Origin: an uncultured Dehalococcoidales bacterium
GTDB taxonomy: Bacteria > Chloroflexota > Dehalococcoidia > Dehalococcoidales > UBA2162
NCBI GenBank assembly: GCA_964606525.1
Contig: CAZSHH010000004.1
Span: forward strand, 1,558-65,557
DNA length: 64,000 nucleotides
Direction: 5' to 3'
Program-made: the position numbers and the translations under genes
The notes under the pieces: generated by a model
The model's input: only the letters and a program-made list of their open reading frames with translations
Databases searched by the model: none
What the model was told of the DNA's origin: nothing
Part shown: positions 19,262-46,510 of the stretch, piece by piece
How positions within the stretch are numbered: the stretch's first letter is position 1
Layout: the number at the start of each line of letters is the position of its first letter

Positions 19262-20608
19262 TTATAATATGGGCAGGTATTTATCGACCTCATAGTCGGA
19301 AATCTGCACCCGGTAGCGGTCCCATTCCACCTTTTTATTGGAGATGAAGGCATTAAAAGTATGTTCTCCCAGGGCTTCCCGCACCAGTTTACTTTTCTCC
19401 GTTAATTGGATCGCTTCCCACAGACTGCCTGGCAACTGGCCGATACCGCGCCGGGCACGTTCTGCTTCCGTCATGTGATATACATTTTCCTCTACCGGCG
19501 GCGGCAGTTCCAATTTCTCATTGATACCGGCCAGGCCAGCCGCCAGTAAGACGCTGAAACAAAGGTAGGGATTAGCCGCCGGGTCGGGAGAACGAATTTC
19601 AAATCTGGTCTCTTTTTCCTTTCCGACCTTGTAAGCAGGCAGGCGGATAAGGTCAGAACGGTTGCGCTGTGCCCAGGATAGATATACCGGGGCTTCATAA
19701 CCCGGCACCAAGCGTTTGTAAGAATTAACCCATTGATTGGTCACCGTGGTAAATTCCGGGGCATATTTGAGTAGACCGGCTAAGAAGTATTGGCCGACTT
19801 TCGATAGATAAAACTTTTCTTTGGGGTCAAAAAAGGCATTGGTATCACCTTTAAATAAGGATTGATGAACATGCATCCCACTGCCGTTAATACCAAATAC
19901 CGGTTTGGGCATAAAGGTCGCATAAACATCGTGCTGGGAAGCTACTTCTTTAACCACCAGGCGGTAGGTCATTACATTATCAGCCATCGTCAGGGCATCA
20001 TCGTACCGCATATCAATCTCATGCTGGCTGATAGCCGCTTCGTGATGCGATTTATCAACCCTGATCCCCATTTTTTCCAGGGCGAGAATGGCATCTCGGC
20101 GCAGGTCTGAAGCTACGCCGCGCGGGTCCATATCGAAATAACCGCCCACATCCAGTGGTTCGGTTCCTTTATTATCTTTGAAATAGAAGTATTCCAATTC
20201 AGGCCCGACATAGAAGGTGTATCCTAATTCGGATGCCTTCTTCAGGTTCCTCTTCAAGACATTGCGGGGATCGCCTTCAAACGGCTTTTTATCAACGGTA
20301 TAAATGTCGCAGTACATCCGGGCTATCGGAGTCTGTTCCGGTACCCAGGGTATCGGGGAATAAGTATTCGGATCAGGAACAGCTATCATATCGCTTTCAT
20401 CAACCCGGACAAAACCCTGGATGGAAGAACCATCAAAGCCTACCCCATCCTCCAAAGCTCCTTCCAACTCTTCAACCGGCAGGGAAAAGCTTTTCAGGAA
20501 ACCAAGAATATCGGTAAACCATAACCTGATGAACTTGATCCCCTGTTCATGGGCAGTTTTGACGACGTATTCTTTTGCTTCGTAGATCTCTTTTCTTCGG
20601 GCGGGCAT
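19262..20608 (-). CDS. glnA: glutamine synthetase type I (GSI-alpha-like)
   Basis: GS motifs (FDGSSI, GSGMHVHQS, NPYL). ATG at 20608 is preceded by AAAGGAGA. The GTG at 20638 used by the ORF track would overlap the predicted -10 box and TSS. Confidence 0.93.
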   Translation of the reverse strand: MPARRKEIYEAKEYVVKTAHEQGIKFIRLWFTDILGFLKSFSLPVEELEGALEDGVGFDGSSIQGFVRVDESDMIAVPDPNTYSPIPWVPEQTPIARMYCDIYTVDKKPFEGDPRNVLKRNLKKASELGYTFYVGPELEYFYFKDNKGTEPLDVGGYFDMDPRGVASDLRRDAILALEKMGIRVDKSHHEAAISQHEIDMRYDDALTMADNVMTYRLVVKEVASQHDVYATFMPKPVFGINGSGMHVHQSLFKGDTNAFFDPKEKFYLSKVGQYFLAGLLKYAPEFTTVTNQWVNSYKRLVPGYEAPVYLSWAQRNRSDLIRLPAYKVGKEKETRFEIRSPDPAANPYLCFSVLLAAGLAGINEKLELPPPVEENVYHMTEAERARRGIGQLPGSLWEAIQLTEKSKLVREALGEHTFNAFISNKKVEWDRYRVQISDYEVDKYLPIL

Positions 20609-20640
20609 CAGGTCTCCTTTATACGTGCAATATGTCACGA

Positions 20641-22813: not shown

Positions 22814-23584
22814 TTACATATGTACCGGGATGCCTCTTTCCTTGAGATAATTTTTCGCCTGCATAATCGAGATTTCTTTAAAATGGAAGATGGAAGCAGC
22901 CAGCACCGCCGAGGCTTTGCCTTCGCTTACCGCCTGGTATAAATGCTCCAGTTTACCAGCGCCGCCGGAAGCGGTTACCGGAATACCAACGGCTTCCGCT
23001 ACCGCACGGGTCATCTCGATATCGTATCCTTCCTTAGTACCATCGGCATCCTTACTGGTCAACAATATCTCTCCGGCGCCAAGCTGTTCTACTTTCCTGG
23101 CCCAGGCCACCAGCTCAAGCCCGGTCGCTTCGCTACCACTTTTTACGACCACTTCCAGCCGTGGTACTTTCCCACCCCGGGGATTTTTCCGGGCATCGAT
23201 CGCCACCACTAAGTGCTGTTTGCCAAATTGTCGGGCAGCTTGTTTAATAAGGTCGGGAGATTTTACTGCCGCTGTATTGATGGAGACTTTATTCACCCCA
23301 AGATCAAAAAGGGTTTTCATGTCTTCCAGGTTGCCGATACCCCCGCCTACGGCGAAAGGTATGGTAACCACATCACACACCCGTTTTACCCACTCCAGCA
23401 TGGTCTTGCGGGCTTCGACCGTAGCAAAAATATCGAGGAAAACGAGTTCATCGGCCCCTTCCTTACTATATGCCATTGCCGCTTCCACCGGATCCCGGGC
23501 ATCTCTTAATCCTTCGAACTTGACACCTTTGACCACCCGGCCGTTCCTGATATCAAGGCAGGGAATTATCCTAATTTCCTTCAC
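22814..23584 (-). CDS. second HisF-type (beta/alpha)8 cyclase paralogue
   Basis: 256-aa [47 protein letters not shown] and ASGGAG are canonical HisF motifs. Its start overlaps the nrpR-like gene by 14 nt. Confidence 0.85.
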   Translation of the reverse strand: MKEIRIIPCLDIRNGRVVKGVKFEGLRDARDPVEAAMAYSKEGADELVFLDIFATVEARKTMLEWVKRVCDVVTIPFAVGGGIGNLEDMKTLFDLGVNKVSINTAAVKSPDLIKQAARQFGKQHLVVAIDARKNPRGGKVPRLEVVVKSGSEATGLELVAWARKVEQLGAGEILLTSKDADGTKEGYDIEMTRAVAEAVGIPVTASGGAGKLEHLYQAVSEGKASAVLAASIFHFKEISIMQAKNYLKERGIPVHM

Positions 23585-24581
23585 GAAGCAGCTCCAAAAA
23601 ATTAGTCAAGCCGTGGTAATCGAACACGGTTGACATACTGTGGTTCTCCACTGCGATCCCGGCTTCCTGCGCTGCAGTGACCGGATTAAGGCCGCCGGTC
23701 AGGATCAAGCCGACCTTGTTCGGTTGAACCGCTACCTCACAGACCGGTTCACTAGGAGCACCTTTAACCAGCACCCCATCGATACCGGAAGCGTTTAATC
23801 CGCTCAGGACTTCCTCTACCACGGGGACACACATCGCAGGTATTTCCCGGAAATTTGCCAGGATCTCGCCGTTCCCGGAAGAAAGAACCTCATTGACCGA
23901 AGTCATGCGGGCTTTGATAAATATTTCTGTCGGATCCAGTGAGCAGCCGTCATAATTAATGATTTCGGTAAAGCGGGTCGGCCGGCCGTCGTTGAACTGT
24001 AAAATACCGCTGAACCGGGAATCCATGGGCACTCCCGCCTTCAGTAAAGTACCATTTATCACAATACTGCATACGGTACCGAAGCCGATCTGATCATCCG
24101 GGACTAGCAGGTCGCCGATGCGTTGTCCCGCCTGGGCAACCGCTACCAACTGGCTGGCACAATAGTTTTTCTCAAAAGCCGGCCTCATCAGCCGTATTGC
24201 CTGAGGGAAATCCGTTTTGTTGAAAAAGGATACGTTCAGCGGCACATTACCATTACATCTCTTGTGATCGAAGGTCGTGCGGAAAGCCAGGAGTTCGATC
24301 TTGGTAATCGCAAAACCGACCTTATCTTTGACTAAGGCGCTTTTTATCTCTGCCTGCCCTTTTTCGGTAATAACCCGGCCGTCCTGGTTGCCTTTTAAAG
24401 CGGTCAAACCTCGCTCATCCATGATTTTTAAATGATATCTGACCGCTCTCTCACTTAAAACCACGCCGTGGTCCTTAAGCTGATGGGCAATCAACCTGCC
24501 CCCCATTGGTTGCTGGCTGGTCTGGAGCACTCTTAATATGGAGAGTATTTTTCTATCGACATCCCGCCGTTCGAAAGTCAT
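23571..24581 (-). CDS. nrpR: NrpR-type nitrogen repressor homologue (wHTH plus DUF128 domain)
   Basis: 336-aa ORF. The N-terminal segment ...GGRLIAHQLKDHGVVLSERAVRYHLKIMDERGLT...GRVITEKG closely follows the methanogen NrpR N-terminus as I remember it. The remainder has the length of one DUF128 module. Confidence 0.72.
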   Translation of the reverse strand: MTFERRDVDRKILSILRVLQTSQQPMGGRLIAHQLKDHGVVLSERAVRYHLKIMDERGLTALKGNQDGRVITEKGQAEIKSALVKDKVGFAITKIELLAFRTTFDHKRCNGNVPLNVSFFNKTDFPQAIRLMRPAFEKNYCASQLVAVAQAGQRIGDLLVPDDQIGFGTVCSIVINGTLLKAGVPMDSRFSGILQFNDGRPTRFTEIINYDGCSLDPTEIFIKARMTSVNEVLSSGNGEILANFREIPAMCVPVVEEVLSGLNASGIDGVLVKGAPSEPVCEVAVQPNKVGLILTGGLNPVTAAQEAGIAVENHSMSTVFDYHGLTNFLELLREGN

Positions 24582-39374: not shown

Positions 39375-40175
39375 GTGGACATGATTGTGTGCTGTAAGCA
39401 AGTCCTTGACCCGGAAGCACCACCGGCAAGTTTCAAAATCGACCCTGCAACAAATAAAGTAATTCCCCCACAAGGGGTTCCCCCCGTTATCAGCCCATTT
39501 GATGAGCAAGCGGTAGAAGCAGCTTTACGCGTGAAAGATGCTAAAGGCGGAAAAATTACCGTCATCAGCCTGGGCATCAATCTCTTGAGAGACGTAGTGA
39601 AAAAACCTTTATCGATGGGTGCCGACGAACTGGTCTTATTAGAAGATCCCGCATACGTGGACGGGGATTCCTGGTCGACGGCCTACGCCTTGGCAATGGC
39701 CATTAAGAAGATCGGAAAATTCGACCTTATTTTCTGCGGCCGGCAAGCCGCAGACTGGGATTCGGGACAGGTAGGTTCCGGAATTGCCGAAATTCTCGGC
39801 CTGCCCAGCGTGACTATCGCCAAAAAAGTTGAAGCACTTGATGGCAAAGCACGCGTAGAACGTATCACCACTGATGGCTTTGAAGTAGTGGAAGTTGCCT
39901 TGCCGGCGGTAATCACGGTAACTAATGAATTAGGGGCGGCTCGTTATCCCACGATCAAGGGGATCATGGGTGCCAAACGGAAAGAACCGATCATCTGGAA
40001 ACCCGCCGATATCGGCGCCGATGCAGCTAAATTGGGTGCCGCCGGAAGACGCACCAAGATAGCCAAATTATTCCAGCCGGTCAAAGAAGCCAAATGTGAA
40101 ATAATTACCGGTGAGACTCCGGAGGAAGCAGCGGTGAAGCTGGCCTTAAAGCTACGGGAAGCAAAAACACTGTAA
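39375..40175 (+). CDS. etfB: electron transfer flavoprotein beta subunit
   Basis: 266-aa ORF, (MD)MIVCCKQVLDPE.... GTG at 39375 is 10 nt after GAGGAGG. Alternative ATG at 39381. Confidence 0.9.
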   Translation: MDMIVCCKQVLDPEAPPASFKIDPATNKVIPPQGVPPVISPFDEQAVEAALRVKDAKGGKITVISLGINLLRDVVKKPLSMGADELVLLEDPAYVDGDSWSTAYALAMAIKKIGKFDLIFCGRQAADWDSGQVGSGIAEILGLPSVTIAKKVEALDGKARVERITTDGFEVVEVALPAVITVTNELGAARYPTIKGIMGAKRKEPIIWKPADIGADAAKLGAAGRRTKIAKLFQPVKEAKCEIITGETPEEAAVKLALKLREAKTL

Positions 40176-40236
40176 TAAATGATGCCGGTTATACCCACGA
40201 AGATGTGAAAACCGGTAGTTTACAGGAGAGAATAGA

Positions 40237-41229
40237 ATGGCGAATGGAATATTGATATTCAGTGAAATTATTGAAGGCAAGCTGGCTTCGGTAACCACCG
40301 AACTACTCGGCTGCGGGCGTAAGTTGGCTGGTGAAACCAACCAGGGGCTTTCTGGCGTACTGATTGGAAATGGGGTAAGTAATTTCTCTGCGCAACTCAT
40401 AAGTTATGGAGCGGATAAAGTATATCTGGTCGAAGACCCCCTGCTGACCGATTACCAGACCGAAACATACCTGACCGTCATGGAAAAAGTAATTAAAGAG
40501 GCCGATCCCCAAATCATCCTCTTCAGTCAAACCGCGATCGGCCGTGACCTGGCACCCCGGCTGGCATTCCGTTTGGGTACCGTTGCTACCATGGACTGCG
40601 TGGCCGTCGAAGTAGACCCGCAGACCAAACGGCTGCTGCCGACCAAACCGGTCTATGGCGGGAATGCGCGGGCAGTATACAGTTATGATTCTGACCCCCA
40701 GATAGCGACCATCCGGGCAAAAGCCGTGTCTGCCCTGGAACCGGATGCTAACCGGAAAGGCGAAGTGATCAACATCGCTGCCGGTATCGAACCGGCTGCG
40801 GTACGGGCAAAAGTGGTCCAGAAAGTTAAAGAAGAAGTTAAGGGGGTAAAACTCGAAGAAGCTCCCGTCATCATTAGCGGCGGACGCGGCATTGGCGGGC
40901 CAGACGGTTTTAAGGAATTGGATGCCATCGCCAAATTGTTAAAAGGAGCTGTCGGAGCCAGCCGCCCGGCGTGTGACAGCGCCTGGATGCCTGATACCGC
41001 CCAGGTTGGCCTGACCGGTAAAGTAGTCACCCCGGACCTCTATATCGCCGTTGGCATCTCCGGCTCGAGCCAACATATGGCTGGATGCTCAGGTGCTAAA
41101 GTTATCGTAGCGATCAATAAGGACCCGGAAGCGAACATTTTTAAAGAAGCCCGATATGGAGTCGTTGGCGACTGGAAGAAAATTATCCCCGCTTTCACTC
41201 AGAAACTAAAAGAGTTGTTGGCTCAATAA
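40237..41229 (+). CDS. etfA: electron transfer flavoprotein alpha subunit
   Basis: 330-aa ORF. C-terminal FAD-binding motifs (SRPACDSAWMP...QVGLTGKVV.P.LYIAVGISGSSQH). Confidence 0.9.
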   Translation: MANGILIFSEIIEGKLASVTTELLGCGRKLAGETNQGLSGVLIGNGVSNFSAQLISYGADKVYLVEDPLLTDYQTETYLTVMEKVIKEADPQIILFSQTAIGRDLAPRLAFRLGTVATMDCVAVEVDPQTKRLLPTKPVYGGNARAVYSYDSDPQIATIRAKAVSALEPDANRKGEVINIAAGIEPAAVRAKVVQKVKEEVKGVKLEEAPVIISGGRGIGGPDGFKELDAIAKLLKGAVGASRPACDSAWMPDTAQVGLTGKVVTPDLYIAVGISGSSQHMAGCSGAKVIVAINKDPEANIFKEARYGVVGDWKKIIPAFTQKLKELLAQ

Positions 41230-41236
41230 ATTAATG

Positions 41237-41290
41237 GGAGTTCCGTACTGCTTAATTGACGATAACAACAGCACGGAACTCCTCCTTTAT
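41237..41290 (+). terminator. intrinsic terminator after etfA
   Basis: GGAGTTCCGTaCTG, 18 nt, CAGcACGGAACTCC followed by TCCTTTATT. Confidence 0.6.
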
Positions 41291-41340
41291 TACCATTAGT
41301 TCATATTACATTTGAAGTTAAACTCCCGATGTTTTGTGGT

Positions 41341-41356
41341 ATGATTGGTCAATCAT
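41341..41356. promoter_or_regulatory. 16-bp palindrome upstream of tetR (candidate operator)
   Basis: ATGATTG-gt-CAATCAT, about 40 nt upstream of the tetR start. Confidence 0.4.
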
Positions 41357-41394
41357 TCACTGTCTGTTAATCTTGCGGAAACCGGAGAAAGAAA

Positions 41395-42009
41395 ATGGTA
41401 AAGTACACGCGGCAAAACGAATCGTCATCCTCCGTAAAAAAAAGCCGGATACTGGATAAAGCCGGAACCCTGTTCTGGAGAAAGGGTTATCACAGCACCA
41501 GTATGCGAGACATCGCCAGTGCCTGCAACTGCAAAGCAGCCAATATCTACAATTATTTCGCCGGTAAAGAAGACATCCTTTTTGAAGTTACCCGGGATAT
41601 CCATGAACGGGCGGTAGCCTCGGTGAAACACCTGGATGAGGATGAGGTGACCAGTCCGGTAGAACAATTACGCTCGTTGGTCAAGAGTCATTTTGGATTG
41701 CTGGTACGCATGAAACGTTCCAGTATCCTGATATCAGATACCGGGCTGAAAGACCTATCGACCGAACACCGTAAAGCAATTGTCCAGCTTCGTGACATCT
41801 ATGATAACATCATGGGTAAGGTCATTGAGCGGGGTATTAAACAAGGAATTTTCGAAGTAAAGGATATTAAAGTAACGATCTACTTAACTTCTTCCGTGAT
41901 AATCAGAAGTACTATCTGGTTCTCACCAAAAGGCCGGTTATCAGTCGATGAAGTCGGTGAAATCATGTTCGATTACGTATATCGCGGCATAAAAGTGGAA
42001 AAGAAATAA
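41395..42009 (+). CDS. TetR/AcrR family transcriptional regulator
   Basis: 204-aa ORF with the TetR HTH signature (F..KGYH.TSMRDIA.A........Y.YF..KE.IL). Confidence 0.85.
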   Translation: MVKYTRQNESSSSVKKSRILDKAGTLFWRKGYHSTSMRDIASACNCKAANIYNYFAGKEDILFEVTRDIHERAVASVKHLDEDEVTSPVEQLRSLVKSHFGLLVRMKRSSILISDTGLKDLSTEHRKAIVQLRDIYDNIMGKVIERGIKQGIFEVKDIKVTIYLTSSVIIRSTIWFSPKGRLSVDEVGEIMFDYVYRGIKVEKK

Positions 42010-42058: not shown

Positions 42059-42598
42059 ATGCTGGAAATTGCCGATACCATGCTCCTGGTAATTGATGTT
42101 CAGGAAAAACTATTCCGGGTCATGCATGATAAGGAAAACCTGTTGCTAAACCTGCAAAAATTATTACAGGGAATACAGGTTTTGGAAGTTCCAGTATTAG
42201 TGACCGAACAATACCCCCAGGGACTGGGTCCCACACTTCCCGACATCTCATCAATAATTCCGGGATTCGATCCGGTCTCCAAGATTAGTTTCAGCTGCTG
42301 GCAACATGATGAATTCAAAAACCGATTGATCAAGCAAAATCGTAAACAAATCCTTATTTCCGGTATCGAAGGACATATCTGCGTTTATCAGACTGCCTGT
42401 GATTTGATCAAGAACGGATATCAAGCCCATGTAGTAACGGATACGGTATCGTCCCGGACTTCCTTTAACCGCCAGCTTGCTCTTGATATGATGCAGCAAG
42501 CCGGTGCCCGGTTGACCGGAACCGAGACCGTGCTTTTCGAATTACTCAAGGCCGCCCAGGGAGATCAATTTAAAAAGATCAGCCAGATTGTCAAGTGA
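42059..42598 (+). CDS. isochorismatase-family (cysteine) hydrolase
   Basis: 179-aa ORF. LLVIDVQEK, ...ISGIEGHICV... (catalytic Cys context). SD GGAGGG. Confidence 0.82.
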   Translation: MLEIADTMLLVIDVQEKLFRVMHDKENLLLNLQKLLQGIQVLEVPVLVTEQYPQGLGPTLPDISSIIPGFDPVSKISFSCWQHDEFKNRLIKQNRKQILISGIEGHICVYQTACDLIKNGYQAHVVTDTVSSRTSFNRQLALDMMQQAGARLTGTETVLFELLKAAQGDQFKKISQIVK

Positions 42599-42616
42599 AA
42601 GGATAGTGACTATAAT
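42588..42616 (+). promoter_or_regulatory. candidate sigma-70 promoter P1 of selenoprotein gene 1
   Basis: TTGTCA, 17 nt, TATAAT. The -35 element lies in the last codons of the hydrolase gene. The 11-mer TATAATCATTA is shared with P2. Confidence 0.5.
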
Positions 42617-42723
42617 CATTAACAAAACATAGCAAGTTAACTCCGGGCAATTTTACCGATACCCTTTGATGATAACGACTAAATGACATCGATTTGACGA
42701 ATACTAAAGGAGAAGGAAGAGCC

Positions 42724-44481
42724 ATGCCAGCAAAAAAATTTAAATGCCTCAACCCTGTCGGTATCCAGGAACCAATCACGCTTTACCCTCTTGCACCGCG
42801 GCTAGATAAGCTTGACGGTAAAACGATCTATGTCAGCATCAATGCCGGCGGCGACCAGGACATTACGATTCCCTTACTCAAACGGCTGCCGCAGGACTAT
42901 CCTAATGTCAACTGGAAAATCAAGCGGCAGTTCGGATTCAGTGCGGAATTAACCGACGAAGAAAAAAAGGATGCCGATGCCGTCATCGCCGGCGTCATCT
43001 GGTGACACGGTGCGATCTGGGAACAGTTGTTCCAGGTTGCCGACAACGAACAGTCAGGTATTCCCACAGTGTCCATGCTGTATGCTGACCAGGATGAAGC
43101 CTTCGTCCAGGCCGGGAAAATGAGCGGTTCCCCCCACCTGCGCAGAATTCACGTTTCCCGCACTTTACCCGGGCCGGTGGACGTGGATGGCTTTATTGGG
43201 TCTTTACTGGACGGCTTGGTCCGGCCTCTAACTAAAGAAGAAAAATCCGGTGGTGTGTATGAGATCAATAATGACCGGATACTTTTTGAAGGAACGCTCG
43301 AAGCAGCCCAGGAATTTTACATGCAGTCCGAGAAGATCCCCACTCTCCGATATAATGCTCCGATCGCGAAATATACCGACGGCCTGCCCATCATCGTGCC
43401 CACGGAAGAACGGGTAGCGGCCATGCTCAAGGGTACCAGCCATAAACCGGACGAGTTTATCGTGCATCAAACCGACCGGGCGGAATTTGCTTTCCAGGCG
43501 AAAGGGCACAAGATAGAAAAAGGTACGCCGGTTAAGTTTATGCCGCTGAAACGTACGGCCACGGTCGAAAGAGTCGCCGTAAACGCGGTGATGGCCGGGT
43601 GCCGGCCGGAGTATTTCCCGGTAGTGCTGGCAATCGCTGAAGCGGGTGGGGGCGGTGGTTCAGATGGGCGGGGCAGCCAGGGCTACGTGGTCAGCGGTCC
43701 GATTTCCAAGGAAATCGGCATGAATTTCGATGTCGGTATCTTTGGCCCGGGTAACCCGGCGAACCGCAGTATCGGCCGGGCGGCCGAACTGATGTGGCGG
43801 AACTTCGGCGGCAACGTCCCGAATGTCACCAATGTGGGTGTAATGGGGTCACCACTGTTCAACTGCATTCCGGAAGACCTCGATAACCTCCCGCCGGGTT
43901 GGCGCGGCTTGAACGAAGAGTACGATTTCAAGCGCAGTGAAAGTATCATTTACGTGATGAACCTCGGCCGCGGCGGCACGACTAACATCCACCGCACCGA
44001 ATTTTCTCCCGGCGGATACCGTGCTTTCCAGAAATCCGGCCACGGTGGTATTGCCCGGCGCCTCGGGGTCAAAGGTGTACCCGGCTCTAAGAACTGGTTG
44101 GGCTATCTCATCCCCGGTGTCTGGCATGATCGTGAAGGCGGTATTACTTTCCTGATGCTGCCCCAGATGGCCCGCCATCTTTACGAAGCCGGTTTCAAGA
44201 CCAAGGACGAGGTCTATGAGTGGATCTACAAGCAGAGCTTCCGGCCGCTGCGCGAATACCGGACGCATTCCTGGGTCGATGTTAATACGGCCTCCTGGAC
44301 AGGTATCGAACGCACTTCCGGCAAACCCTGGAAGGAATTATCCGACGATTACCTGGTTCCCTTTGTGAACGATCCCTGGGAAAGCTGCATCATTGTCACT
44401 GGCGGCGGCGAAGAATATCCGCAATGGGTGGGTGCCCGCCGTCCTGGTATTAAACCTATCAATATCGACTACTGGCGCTAA
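42724..44481 (+). CDS. candidate selenoprotein, copy 1 (585 codons, in-frame TGA = Sec94 at 43003-43005)
   Basis: ATG at 42724 follows AAAGGAGAAGGA. The 93-aa and 484-aa ORFs of the track are in the same frame and are joined by TGA plus 7 conserved codons. A SECIS-like hairpin follows. A paralogue with identical architecture lies downstream. Confidence 0.75.
43012..43040 (+). promoter_or_regulatory. SECIS-like hairpin downstream of UGA (copy 1)
   Basis: GCGAUCUGG-G(bulge)-AAC-[AGUU]-GUU-CCAGGUUGC. 12 pairs including 2 G-U. The apical loop starts 19 nt after the UGA and contains GU. Confidence 0.6.
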
Positions 44482-44503
44482 CAACACCGATTTGTCATCA
44501 AGC

Positions 44504-44542
44504 AAGAAGCTGGAGGGAAAAATCCTCCAGCTTCTTTTTTCT
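44504..44542 (+). terminator. intrinsic terminator after selenoprotein gene 1
   Basis: AAGAAGCTGGAGG-gaaaaat-CCTCCAGCTTCTT followed by TTTTCTTT. Confidence 0.85.
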
Positions 44543-44592
44543 TTGCCGGGACGATAGTGGCTTTTCGATTTTAACATTACCAGAAAGCCGCA

Positions 44593-44621
44593 TTGTAAAG
44601 GTGTTGGATTGGCGATATAAT
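44593..44621 (+). promoter_or_regulatory. candidate sigma-70 promoter P2 of selenoprotein gene 2
   Basis: TTGTAA, 17 nt, TATAAT, followed by the same CATTA as P1. Confidence 0.5.
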
Positions 44622-44692
44622 CATTACAATTTTCACCAACATTGTCATATTATCGTAAATGTTTGTAAGGATTTTAAGGAGACGGAATCACT

Positions 44693-46450
44693 ATGCCAGA
44701 AAGAAAATATAAGTGTCTGAATCCTGTTGGTATCCAGGACCCGGTAAAAATCTATCCTTTAGCTCCCAGGCTTGACAAGATCGACGGTAAGACCATCTAT
44801 GTCTGTATAAATGCCGGCGGCGACCAGGATATCACGATCCCGCTGCGCAAGCGGCTGCCCGCTGATTACCCGAACGTCAACTGGAAGATGAAGCTGAATT
44901 ACGGTTTCAGTGCTCAATTGACCGATGAGGAAAAGAAAGATGCTGACGCTGTGATTGCCGGCGTCATCTGGTGACACGGCGCTATCTGGGGACAGTTGTT
45001 CCAAGTAGCGGAAAATGAACAAGCCGGCATTCCAACCGTATCTCTACTATATGCCGACCAGGATGAATGTTTCCACCAGGCTGCGCTGATGAGTGGCTCT
45101 CCCAATCTCCGGCGCGTGCACGTATCCCGAACCCTCCAGGGGCCGGAAGATGTCGACCGTTTTCTGCCTGTGATGCTGGAGGCCCTGGTCCGTCCCTTAG
45201 CAAAGGATGAAAAGGCAGTTGGGAAGCTGGAACTGGCAGACGACAGGGTACTCTTTGAAGGTACCATGGAGGCAGCATATGAATTCTATACGCAGACGGA
45301 AAATATTGCTGCTCTGAAAAATAATGTACCGATCGCCAAGTATACCGACGGCCTGCCGATCGTGGTTCCTACGGAAGAAAAGGTGGCATTAATGCTCAAA
45401 GGTACCAGCCATAAAGCGGATGAATTGATCGTGCAAACCAGGGAACACGGCGGCTTGCCAATGGGCATGGGGGTACCCCGGAAGAAAGGCGACCCGGTCT
45501 TATTCCAACCGCTTAAAAGAAGAGCGACAGTGGAAAAAGTAGCGATCAATGCCGTGATGGCCGGATGTAAACCGGAATATATGCCTTTATTGCTGGCGAT
45601 CGCAGAAGCGGGCGGGGGCGGCGGTGGAGACGGCCGCGGCAGCCAGGCTTTCATCGTCAGCGGCCCTTATTCCAAAGAGATCGGTATGAACTGCGACGTC
45701 GGCATCCTCGGCCCGGGCAATCCGGCCAACCGGAGCATCGCCCGCGCCGCCGAACTGATGTGGCGCAACTTCGGGGGGAATATCCCTGCTGTCACCAACT
45801 GCGGCGTGATGGGAGCGCCGCTCTTCAACTGCATCCCAGAAGACCTCGATAATCTACCGCCGGGTTGGCGCGGTCTGAATGAAGAATACGATTACAAGAA
45901 AAACGAGAGTATCGTCTATGCTGCTAATATCGGGCGGGGCGGTTCTACCAACATTCACCGCACCGAATTCTCTCCGGGCGGCTACCGGGCTTTCCAGAAA
46001 TCCGGCCACGGCGGGATTGCCCGCCGTTTGGGCGTCAAAGGCAAACCCGGTCCCAAGAACTGGCTGGAATACATGCTGCCCGAACTCTGGGCCGGCCGTG
46101 AAGGCGGCATCACCTTCCTGATGCTGCCCCAGATGGCGCAAGCCCTCTGCGATGCCGGTTTCAAGACGAAGGATGAGGTCTACGAGTGGATCTATAAAGC
46201 CAGCTTCCGGACTGTCCGCGAATACCGCGCCCATTCCTGGCCTGATGTGCAGACCAACGCCTGGAATGCTGTAGAAAAAGTCTCCGGGAAGCCCTGGAAA
46301 GATCTGTCCGACGATGCCCTGGTGCCCTTTGTCAGCGAGCCTTATGAAAATTGTATTATCGTGACCGGCGGTGGCGAAGAGTATCCCCAGTGGCTGGGGG
46401 CCCGCCGGAACATGGGCAACCCGGCATACAGTATCGACACCTGGCGATAA
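44693..46450 (+). CDS. candidate selenoprotein, copy 2 (585 codons, in-frame TGA = Sec94 at 44972-44974)
   Basis: ATG at 44693 follows TAAGGAGA. Same split-ORF geometry and same frame (44693 and 44996 are both 2 mod 3). The flanks DADAVIAGVIW-TGA-HGAIW are identical to copy 1. Confidence 0.75.
44980..45010 (+). promoter_or_regulatory. SECIS-like hairpin downstream of UGA (copy 2)
   Basis: CGCUAUCUGG-G(bulge)-GAC-[AGUU]-GUU-CCAAGUAGCG. Same geometry as copy 1, with one C-A mismatch and one compensated pair. Confidence 0.55.
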
Positions 46451-46476: not shown

Positions 46477-46510
46477 AAAAAAGACCGGGGGTAACTCCCC
46501 GGTCTTTTTT
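46477..46510. terminator. bidirectional intrinsic terminator (selenoprotein gene 2 and DUF2812 gene)
   Basis: AAAAAGACCGGGG-gtaact-CCCCGGTCTTTTTTT, with an A-run upstream and a T-run downstream. Confidence 0.85.

Follow-up and report, generated by a model that had tools for sequence, protein, structure and literature searches.

The archetype of the bacterial selenocysteine insertion sequence (SECIS), that of Escherichia coli fdhF, is a stem-loop with a bulged U17 that lies in the coding sequence directly 3' of the UGA codon for selenocysteine (Sec). Rfam includes SECIS families among its covariance models. The SECIS is bound by SelB together with GTP and Sec-tRNA(Sec); when the ribosome arrives, the lower helix comes apart, and the UGA, then in the A site, receives the charged tRNA (PMC13188914). 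The bacterial SECIS consensus (Zhang & Gladyshev 2005, as given in PMC13188914) describes a loop of 3-9 nt that has G within its first two positions and, as a rule, G or U next, an upper stem of 4-16 bp, a UGA-to-loop distance of 16-37 nt, and a minimum free energy (MFE) of -7.5 kcal/mol or lower. Here we analyze two hairpins that each follow an in-frame UGA in one of two tandem genes on a 64,000-nt stretch of DNA (the window) from an uncultured Dehalococcoidales bacterium. Comparison with homologous sequences indicates that both are very probably bacterial SECIS elements located inside selenoprotein coding sequence. They are unannotated instances of a well-known recoding element, whose mechanism is ordinary and known, in a selenoprotein family that is little described and systematically mis-annotated.

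The genes, codons, and hairpins in question are located in the window as follows.

42724 to 44481, forward strand: predicted selenoprotein gene, copy 1; 585 codons in a frame that is continuous across the UGA, with Sec as codon 94
43003 to 43005, forward strand: predicted Sec codon UGA of copy 1, in frame with the ATG open reading frame (ORF) at 42724
43012 to 43040, forward strand: putative SECIS hairpin of copy 1; 9-bp lower stem, one-G bulge, apical stem of 3-5 bp, and AGUU loop
43021 to 43032, forward strand: apical stem-loop of putative SECIS 1, GAAC-AGUU-GUUC, with the loop at 43025-43028
44693 to 46450, forward strand: predicted selenoprotein gene, copy 2, a tandem paralogue; 585 codons, with Sec as codon 94
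44972 to 44974, forward strand: predicted Sec codon UGA of copy 2, in frame with the ATG ORF at 44693
44980 to 45010, forward strand: putative SECIS hairpin of copy 2, with an RNAfold MFE of -14.1 kcal/mol
44990 to 45001, forward strand: apical stem-loop of putative SECIS 2, GGAC-AGUU-GUUC, with the loop at 44994-44997

In a mechanical ORF list, each gene appears as two ORFs in one frame, the first of 93 codons and closed by the TGA, the second of 484 codons and downstream. The frame 3' of the UGA is in fact open for 491 codons, and with the 93-codon ORF forms a gene of 585 codons in each copy. The nominal start of the 484-codon ORF is a TTG lying 24 nt downstream of the UGA (43027-43029 in copy 1 and 44996-44998 in copy 2), which ORF finders and gene callers take as an initiation codon. 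The ATG starts of both copies are preceded by the Shine-Dalgarno sequence AAGGAGA; none was found when one was sought before the TTG starts of the two 484-codon ORFs. The copies are about 73% identical across the C-terminal 484 residues. The Sec context of copy 1 is GVIW-U-HGAIW, the predicted peptide across the UGA reads GVIW-U-HGAIWEQLFQVADNEQSGIPTVSMLYADQDEAFVQAGK, and both amino acid conservation and frame continuity are seen on either side of the UGA in the two copies. A scan of the window for other in-frame TGA codons flanked by long ORFs gave no credible candidates beyond these two.

Homologues were then used to examine how the UGA is read. Matches numbered 2,921 at 90% clustering, and clusters 2,103 at 50% identity; the nearest named relatives are metagenome-assembled genomes (MAGs) of Dehalococcoidales. 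Among the matches listed, nearly all are "hypothetical" fragments, either N-terminal pieces of 92-93 residues that end at the UGA or C-terminal pieces of about 480 residues that start at or just after the TTG; the C-terminal database entries open with LFQVA... or MFQVA.... The best-scoring homologues have a uniform query coverage of about 83% because gene callers start at the TTG in the SECIS loop. We gathered 173 homologous loci, 136 of which have an N-terminal region aligning over codon 94. The codon aligned to the UGA is TGA in 121 of these, a cysteine (Cys) codon in 5, and another sense codon in 10, with TAA or TAG in none. One full-length relative, P0045, is 58% identical over the N-terminal 208 residues, and its Cys99 aligns to codon 94 without a break, within the motif W-C-HGAIWEQ. 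Among more distant full-length proteins, forms with CGSC or CPGC occur in place of the UGSC or UPGC of the Sec forms. A second homologue search for further close Cys forms found fragments only. The alternation of TGA and Cys at a single position, with conserved flanks, is the classic Sec/Cys signature expected of a selenoprotein family.

These data bear on whether the UGA might simply be a real stop, with two proteins being made, one of 93 residues and one of 484 residues initiated at the TTG, and with the hairpin either incidental or serving to couple termination and reinitiation. Public annotation pipelines do split the gene in this way, the homologue fragments begin at the TTG or end at the UGA, and TGA serves as an ordinary stop elsewhere in the window, in 4 of 25 confident genes. 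Against such an arrangement, the stretch of seven codons that separates the UGA from the TTG (H-G-A-I-W-E/G-Q) is kept as protein sequence, the reading frame is unbroken at the UGA in every case, the Cys-containing homologues are single ORFs, and a stop that is TGA in 121 loci is never TAA or TAG. The TTG also lacks the Shine-Dalgarno sequence that the ATG starts possess. We therefore consider two separate proteins extremely unlikely.

The generic alternatives for any in-frame TGA were also considered, namely, reassignment of UGA to Trp or Gly, known from genetic codes 4 and 25, and a sequencing error or pseudogene lesion as the origin of the TGA. Nothing specific speaks for either. The code is not reassigned, because TGA terminates the 4 of 25 confident window genes noted above, and the homologues carry Cys at the position, neither Trp nor Gly. 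An error or lesion would have to account for the same TGA in both copies and in 121 independent assemblies. These alternatives are effectively refuted by the window stops and the aligned codons, the probability left to them is negligible, and the in-frame UGA is best read as a Sec codon.

The hairpins that follow the two UGA codons were first proposed in an earlier note on this DNA, and both were found in the sequence at the positions given there, 43012-43040 and 44980-45010. RNAfold reproduces the fold proposed for copy 1 exactly: in the centroid structure, 43012-43020 and 43032-43040 form the lower stem, G43021 is left as the bulge, AAC and GUU form the pairs above it, and A43025 to U43028 make up the loop. 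This hairpin has a fold energy of -14.9 to -15.2 kcal/mol. Placements of the bulge at G17, G18, or G19 are equal in energy and give an apical stem of 3, 4, or 5 bp, and the copy-1 fold is also the alifold consensus of the closest relatives. For copy 2, the proposed apical stem-loop and outer stem are unchanged in the MFE fold, but the middle of the stem shifts register and the C-A mismatch is thereby avoided; the register first proposed has an energy of -12.6 versus -14.1 kcal/mol for the MFE fold. Base-pair probabilities for the copy-2 apical pairs 19-30 to 22-27 are 0.87-0.98. Alignment of the copies bore out the three differences that had been listed between them, that is, the change of the G43014-U43038 pair to U44983-A45007, the change of A43022-U43031 to G44991-U45000, and the replacement of C43017-G43035 by a C-A mismatch.

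Set beside the bacterial consensus, both elements lie within coding sequence, with the stem beginning 6 nt after the UGA in copy 1 and 5 nt after it in copy 2, and the loop beginning 19 nt after the UGA in each, all as the earlier note had it. The 4-nt AGUU loop is within the size range and has G at the second position followed by U, again as in known bacterial SECIS elements, whose location directly 3' of a Sec UGA in coding sequence the hairpins share. The MFE values of -15.2 (copy 1) and -14.1 kcal/mol (copy 2) are well below the -7.5 kcal/mol limit. The upper stem is 5 bp in the copy-2 MFE fold, within the 4-16 bp range, and is 3-5 bp in copy 1 depending upon placement of the bulge. That single-nucleotide bulge 5' of the apical stem is reminiscent of fdhF, to which the earlier note had likened it. 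It is present in the window copies and is not kept across the subgroups of homologues. The window loop, AGUU closed by a C-G pair, also differs from the GGUC loop of fdhF.

The strongest evidence for function of the hairpins as RNA came from the close homologues. We prepared an ungapped alignment of the TGA and the following 51 nt from 44 close homologues with 47-94% protein identity, later extended to 51 distinct sequences. The Gln-Leu codons that form the closing pair and the loop (columns 22-27) are CAG-TTG in 49 of the 49 sequences with Q-L here. The synonymous sites of CAG-TTG have zero entropy, compared with 1.1-1.95 bits at other third-codon positions of the same 48 nt, and farther downstream in these genes only 12.4% of the Leu codons are TTG. 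The loop is found 19 nt from the UGA in all close homologues, and the apical stem, which comprises columns 19-22 paired with 27-30, is 4-6 bp long. Subgroups encoding E-Q-L-F, G-Q-L-S, E-Q-L-P, R-Q-L-P, and I-Q-A-E each have a hairpin at equal distance from the UGA.

Pair 19-30 at the base of this apical stem shows repeated compensatory change. In the 44 homologues it is GC in 21, AU in 18, GU in 2, CG in 1, and unpaired in 2. Its covariation score of 0.405, versus 0.166 in shuffled alignments, was reached in 0 of 500 shuffles and exceeds that of every slid register. The base in column 30 occupies the synonymous third position of a Pro, Phe, or Ser codon. When the codon is Pro, AGG is found with CCT in 18 of 18 sequences, GGG or GAG with CCC in 18 of 20 (the other two forming G-U), and CGG with CCG; for the A or G at column 19 in these Pro-coded sequences, the association has a Fisher p = 6e-9, uncorrected for phylogeny. 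In the window subgroup, GAA or GGA pairs with TTC, and GGG with TCC. Several independent double changes must have occurred at this pair, because its states are interspersed on the protein tree; L010 and L086, for example, are 88% identical, yet one has A-U and the other G-C. In the homologues, structure is thus conserved beyond amino acid constraint, in the apical stem-loop, a feature whose absence the earlier note had said would refute the proposal. The apical stem-loop of SECIS 1 is presumed to be the conserved core of the element and the site of SelB contact.

The lower stem did not provide comparable evidence. The earlier note had drawn support, which it called thin, from the single compensatory change between the copies at the pair of columns 12-36, a pair that in ten relatives is UA in 5, UG in 2, GU in 1, and mismatched in 2. 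That support was not upheld statistically: 95.8% of the cells of the lower stem are paired in the 10 closest relatives, yet covariation there falls short of significance, with 69 of 500 shuffles reaching the observed value. The covariation resides in the apical stem instead. The register of the lower stem varies between subgroups, and because the lower stems differ in register, RNAalifold applied to all 44 close homologues recovered 2 pairs only; folding was consequently carried out by subgroup.

The lack of significant lower-stem covariation and the variable register weigh against a SECIS, as do several further results. Synonymous recoding with gene-specific codon usage gave z = -0.63 for copy 1 and -0.24 for copy 2, with some 28-41% of the recodings of the window copies folding at least as stably as the native sequence. 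The mean z for 51 homologues was -0.67, with only 11 below -1.64. Energies no better than those of codon-shuffled controls had been named in the earlier note as an observation that would speak against the hairpins, and for the two window copies this was in part what was seen. Set against dinucleotide shuffles the folds do only modestly better, at z = -1.65 and -2.11 (43-nt segments) and -1.08 (60-nt segments). Rfam searches of the window at gathering thresholds and of 42600-45200 at E <= 10 gave neither a SECIS family nor any other of relevance, so that the hairpins share a biological role with the Rfam SECIS families, yet have no covariance-model match. Finally, none of selA, selB, selD, or a gene for tRNA-Sec was found within the 64-kb window, in which the only tRNA gene is a single tRNA-Gly.

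ARAGORN likewise called no tRNA-Sec in 44 homologous loci, its sole call there being one tRNA-Glu of 95 nt. This tRNA-Glu(ttc), of unusual length, is found at L078:1786-1880; a distant homologue has its in-frame TGA (L078:2787) some 900 nt farther downstream. In favor of the Sec reading, Dehalococcoidia, to which the nearest named relatives belong, include documented Sec users and some of the most selenoprotein-rich bacteria (PMC13326102).

The recoding results raise the alternative that the UGA does encode Sec, but that the hairpin is a by-product of conserved amino acids, with the recoding signal lying elsewhere or not being a hairpin. The weak z values, the proportion of recodings of equal or greater stability, and the statistics of the lower stem would all agree with this, and 12.6% of bacterial selenoprotein entries in BSepDB are without a canonical SECIS. 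A by-product would not be expected to freeze the synonymous positions of Gln and Leu in 49 of 49 sequences, with TTG being a minor Leu codon, nor to make the third base of a Pro codon track the first base of the codon three upstream through repeated independent switches. Neither would subgroups with different amino acids be expected to all keep a hairpin at equal distance from the UGA. The synonymous recoding test is in addition undiscriminating here, because E/G-Q-L-F encodes the stem whichever G-ending Leu codon is used. The residues at positions 7 and 10 after Sec change in concert, as the two sides of a base pair; the amino acid sequence is itself co-adapted to the stem, and synonymous shuffling understates the constraint. 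On this balance, we regard a by-product as very unlikely.

The stability of the single sequences is not beyond chance, and the signal is comparative conservation together with covariation. The decisive evidence for SECIS elements is the frozen synonymous sites and the repeated compensatory changes in the apical stem, neither thermodynamics nor the single pair of the lower stem. Together with the pairing of Sec and Cys forms and the fit to the bacterial consensus, these support the assignment that the earlier note had made.

Hairpins were also found at the same place in more distant relatives. L099 and L100, with 37% identity and the sequence I/V-Q-A/S-E, have a 6-bp hairpin with the loop AGGCU or AGUCU. 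In the distant superfamily (25-30% identity), the loop is GGUC in 78 of 79 distinct sequences and AGUU in one, so that the AGUU of the window differs from these relatives as it does from fdhF. This is a textbook SECIS, with the GGUC loop 17 nt after the UGA. Pair 18-27 of these hairpins is GC in 69, CG in 8, and UA in 2, and pair 19-26 is AU in 29, GC in 27, and GU in 13; the stems include CCCGAC/GUCGGG, CCCCAC/GUGGGG, CCCUAC/GUAGGG, and CCGGAG/CUCCGG. The Val codon is GTC in 78 of the 79 sequences, and three Cys forms (GHCSTC) carry GTG instead. Motifs at the Sec position of these distant proteins (L022-L160) are G[HL]-U-S-T-C, U-G-G-C, U-H-G-C, U-P-G-C, U-D-G-C, and U-G-S-C; L040:2956, L107:1956, and L063:4008 are examples. 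Their MAGs are labeled as Proteobacteria (alpha, beta, and gamma), Deltaproteobacteria/Thermodesulfobacteriota, Acidobacteriota, Actinomycetes, and Chloroflexota.

Several paralogues can be present in a single genome, often in tandem as in the window, with instances at L005:953, L009:5475, and L163:3206. A single Dehalococcoidales MAG (CAZBAN01; L021, L080, and L162) has paralogues with AGUU, GGUC, and AGUAU loops. Judging from these sequences, one SelB evidently reads all three loops, their common feature being G-U in the loop. The variety of loops in one genome therefore implies a broad loop tolerance of the resident SelB.

By analogy with the established bacterial pathway, from which the following steps are drawn, SelB carrying GTP and Sec-tRNA(Sec) would bind the apical loop and stem, with the G-U of the loop, as the ribosome nears. 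Advance of the ribosome would melt the lower stem. With the UGA in the A site, SelB would hand over Sec-tRNA(Sec) while competing with release factor 2, and translation would then run on through the codons of the hairpin itself (H-G-A-I-W-E/G-Q-L-F-Q-V-A) to yield a protein of 585 residues. The product would have Sec in the W-U-H-G-A motif of a UGSC-like N-terminal domain that is probably redox-active.

Residues 9-144, the N-terminal ~140 residues, gave a sub-threshold match to the Pfam family UGSC PF24696 (18.1 bits versus a cutoff of 25). The window proteins gave no match to NCBIfam NF041046. Distant relatives with the same two-domain architecture score 82-103 bits with PF24696, and 64-76 bits with NF041046 versus a cutoff of 125; in L071 and L103, a literal U-G-S-C motif is fused to the same C-terminal domain. 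The window proteins thus resemble the UGSC family (PF24696 / NF041046) in having Sec at the homologous position and a remotely similar N-terminal domain. They differ in the motif, W-U-H-G-A, in which both copies have Ala where UxxC has its resolving Cys. Motifs of the close family are U-H-G-A, U-S-G-A, or U-H-N-A.

The C-terminal ~480 residues (encoded by 43027-44481 and 44996-46450) matched no Pfam or NCBIfam family and, by profile search at E < 1, no relative in the PDB. Foldseek comparison of an AF2 model of this domain (pLDDT 77, pTM 0.80) against the PDB gave nothing with E < 1. The domain has invariant motifs such as MLKGTSH, VMAGC, and FSPGGYR. From these sequence comparisons, the protein appears to be a divergent UGSC-like domain joined to a ~480-residue domain of unknown fold. 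A 2008 selenoproteome paper on the GOS data mentions a 'UGSC/Unknown_1 fusion' (PMC2398784), in which a UGSC domain is joined to a conserved domain that may be the window C-terminal domain. We tentatively suggest that the window genes could belong to a selenoprotein subfamily that is uncatalogued so far and is abundant in Dehalococcoidia, with several copies per genome. In it, a UGSC-like domain that lacks the resolving Cys (W-U-[HS]-G-A) would be combined with the ~480-residue domain and with its own C-AGUU-G tetraloop SECIS.

The genes surrounding family members recur to some extent. An isochorismatase-family hydrolase gene (window 42059-42598, forward strand) lies directly upstream of the selenoprotein gene, as it does in the closest relatives (L161:4368-4907 and the contig of P0001). 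In other relatives, short-chain dehydrogenase genes precede the selenoprotein gene and a NifU_N gene follows it, and the Cys form P0045 adjoins Aminotran_5 and NifU_N genes. These isochorismatase, short-chain dehydrogenase, NifU_N, and Aminotran_5 surroundings may constitute a functional neighborhood. In the window, etfB, etfA, and a 204-residue ORF that is TetR-like by eye (39375-42009) are found just upstream of the cluster of isochorismatase and selenoprotein genes.

Four further sites flank the two genes. The terminator-like hairpins among them are strong; the promoter-like sites were identified by consensus scan only.

42588 to 42616, forward strand: promoter-like site upstream of copy 1, TTGTCA-17-TATAAT, 11 of 12 consensus matches
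44593 to 44621, forward strand: promoter-like site upstream of copy 2, TTGTAA-17-TATAAT, 10 of 12 consensus matches
44504 to 44536, forward strand: intrinsic-terminator-like hairpin after copy 1, a 14-bp stem followed by TTTT
46477 to 46510, reverse strand: terminator-like hairpin after copy 2, a 14-bp stem with a T-run

A weak Rfam match to the Bacillus small RNA ncr1015, on the opposite strand of the copy-1 terminator hairpin (44504-44536), was rejected as spurious. Elsewhere in the window, an NrpR-type nitrogen repressor is found about 3 kb from glutamine synthetase (23571-24581 and 19262-20638, both on the reverse strand), and the repressor gene is also about 4.4 kb from an NAD synthase gene. 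The NrpR family is best known from archaea.

For annotation, these results matter in that almost all public records divide the gene in two at the UGA, and recognition of the SECIS restores a selenoprotein of 585 residues. Understanding of the recoding mechanism itself is unchanged. The compensatory series AGG/CCT, GGG/CCC, CGG/CCG, GAA/TTC, and GGG/TCC and the occurrence of AGUU, GGUC, and AGUAU loops within one genome could help refine models of bacterial SECIS elements and of SelB specificity. Two genes are added to the selenoproteome of a Dehalococcoidia-like organism, and they point to a large, functionally unknown family of two-domain redox proteins. If the window genes do belong to an uncatalogued subfamily, they would represent a new class of selenoenzyme whose members appear, by a systematic error of annotation, as pairs of hypothetical ORFs across thousands of database entries.

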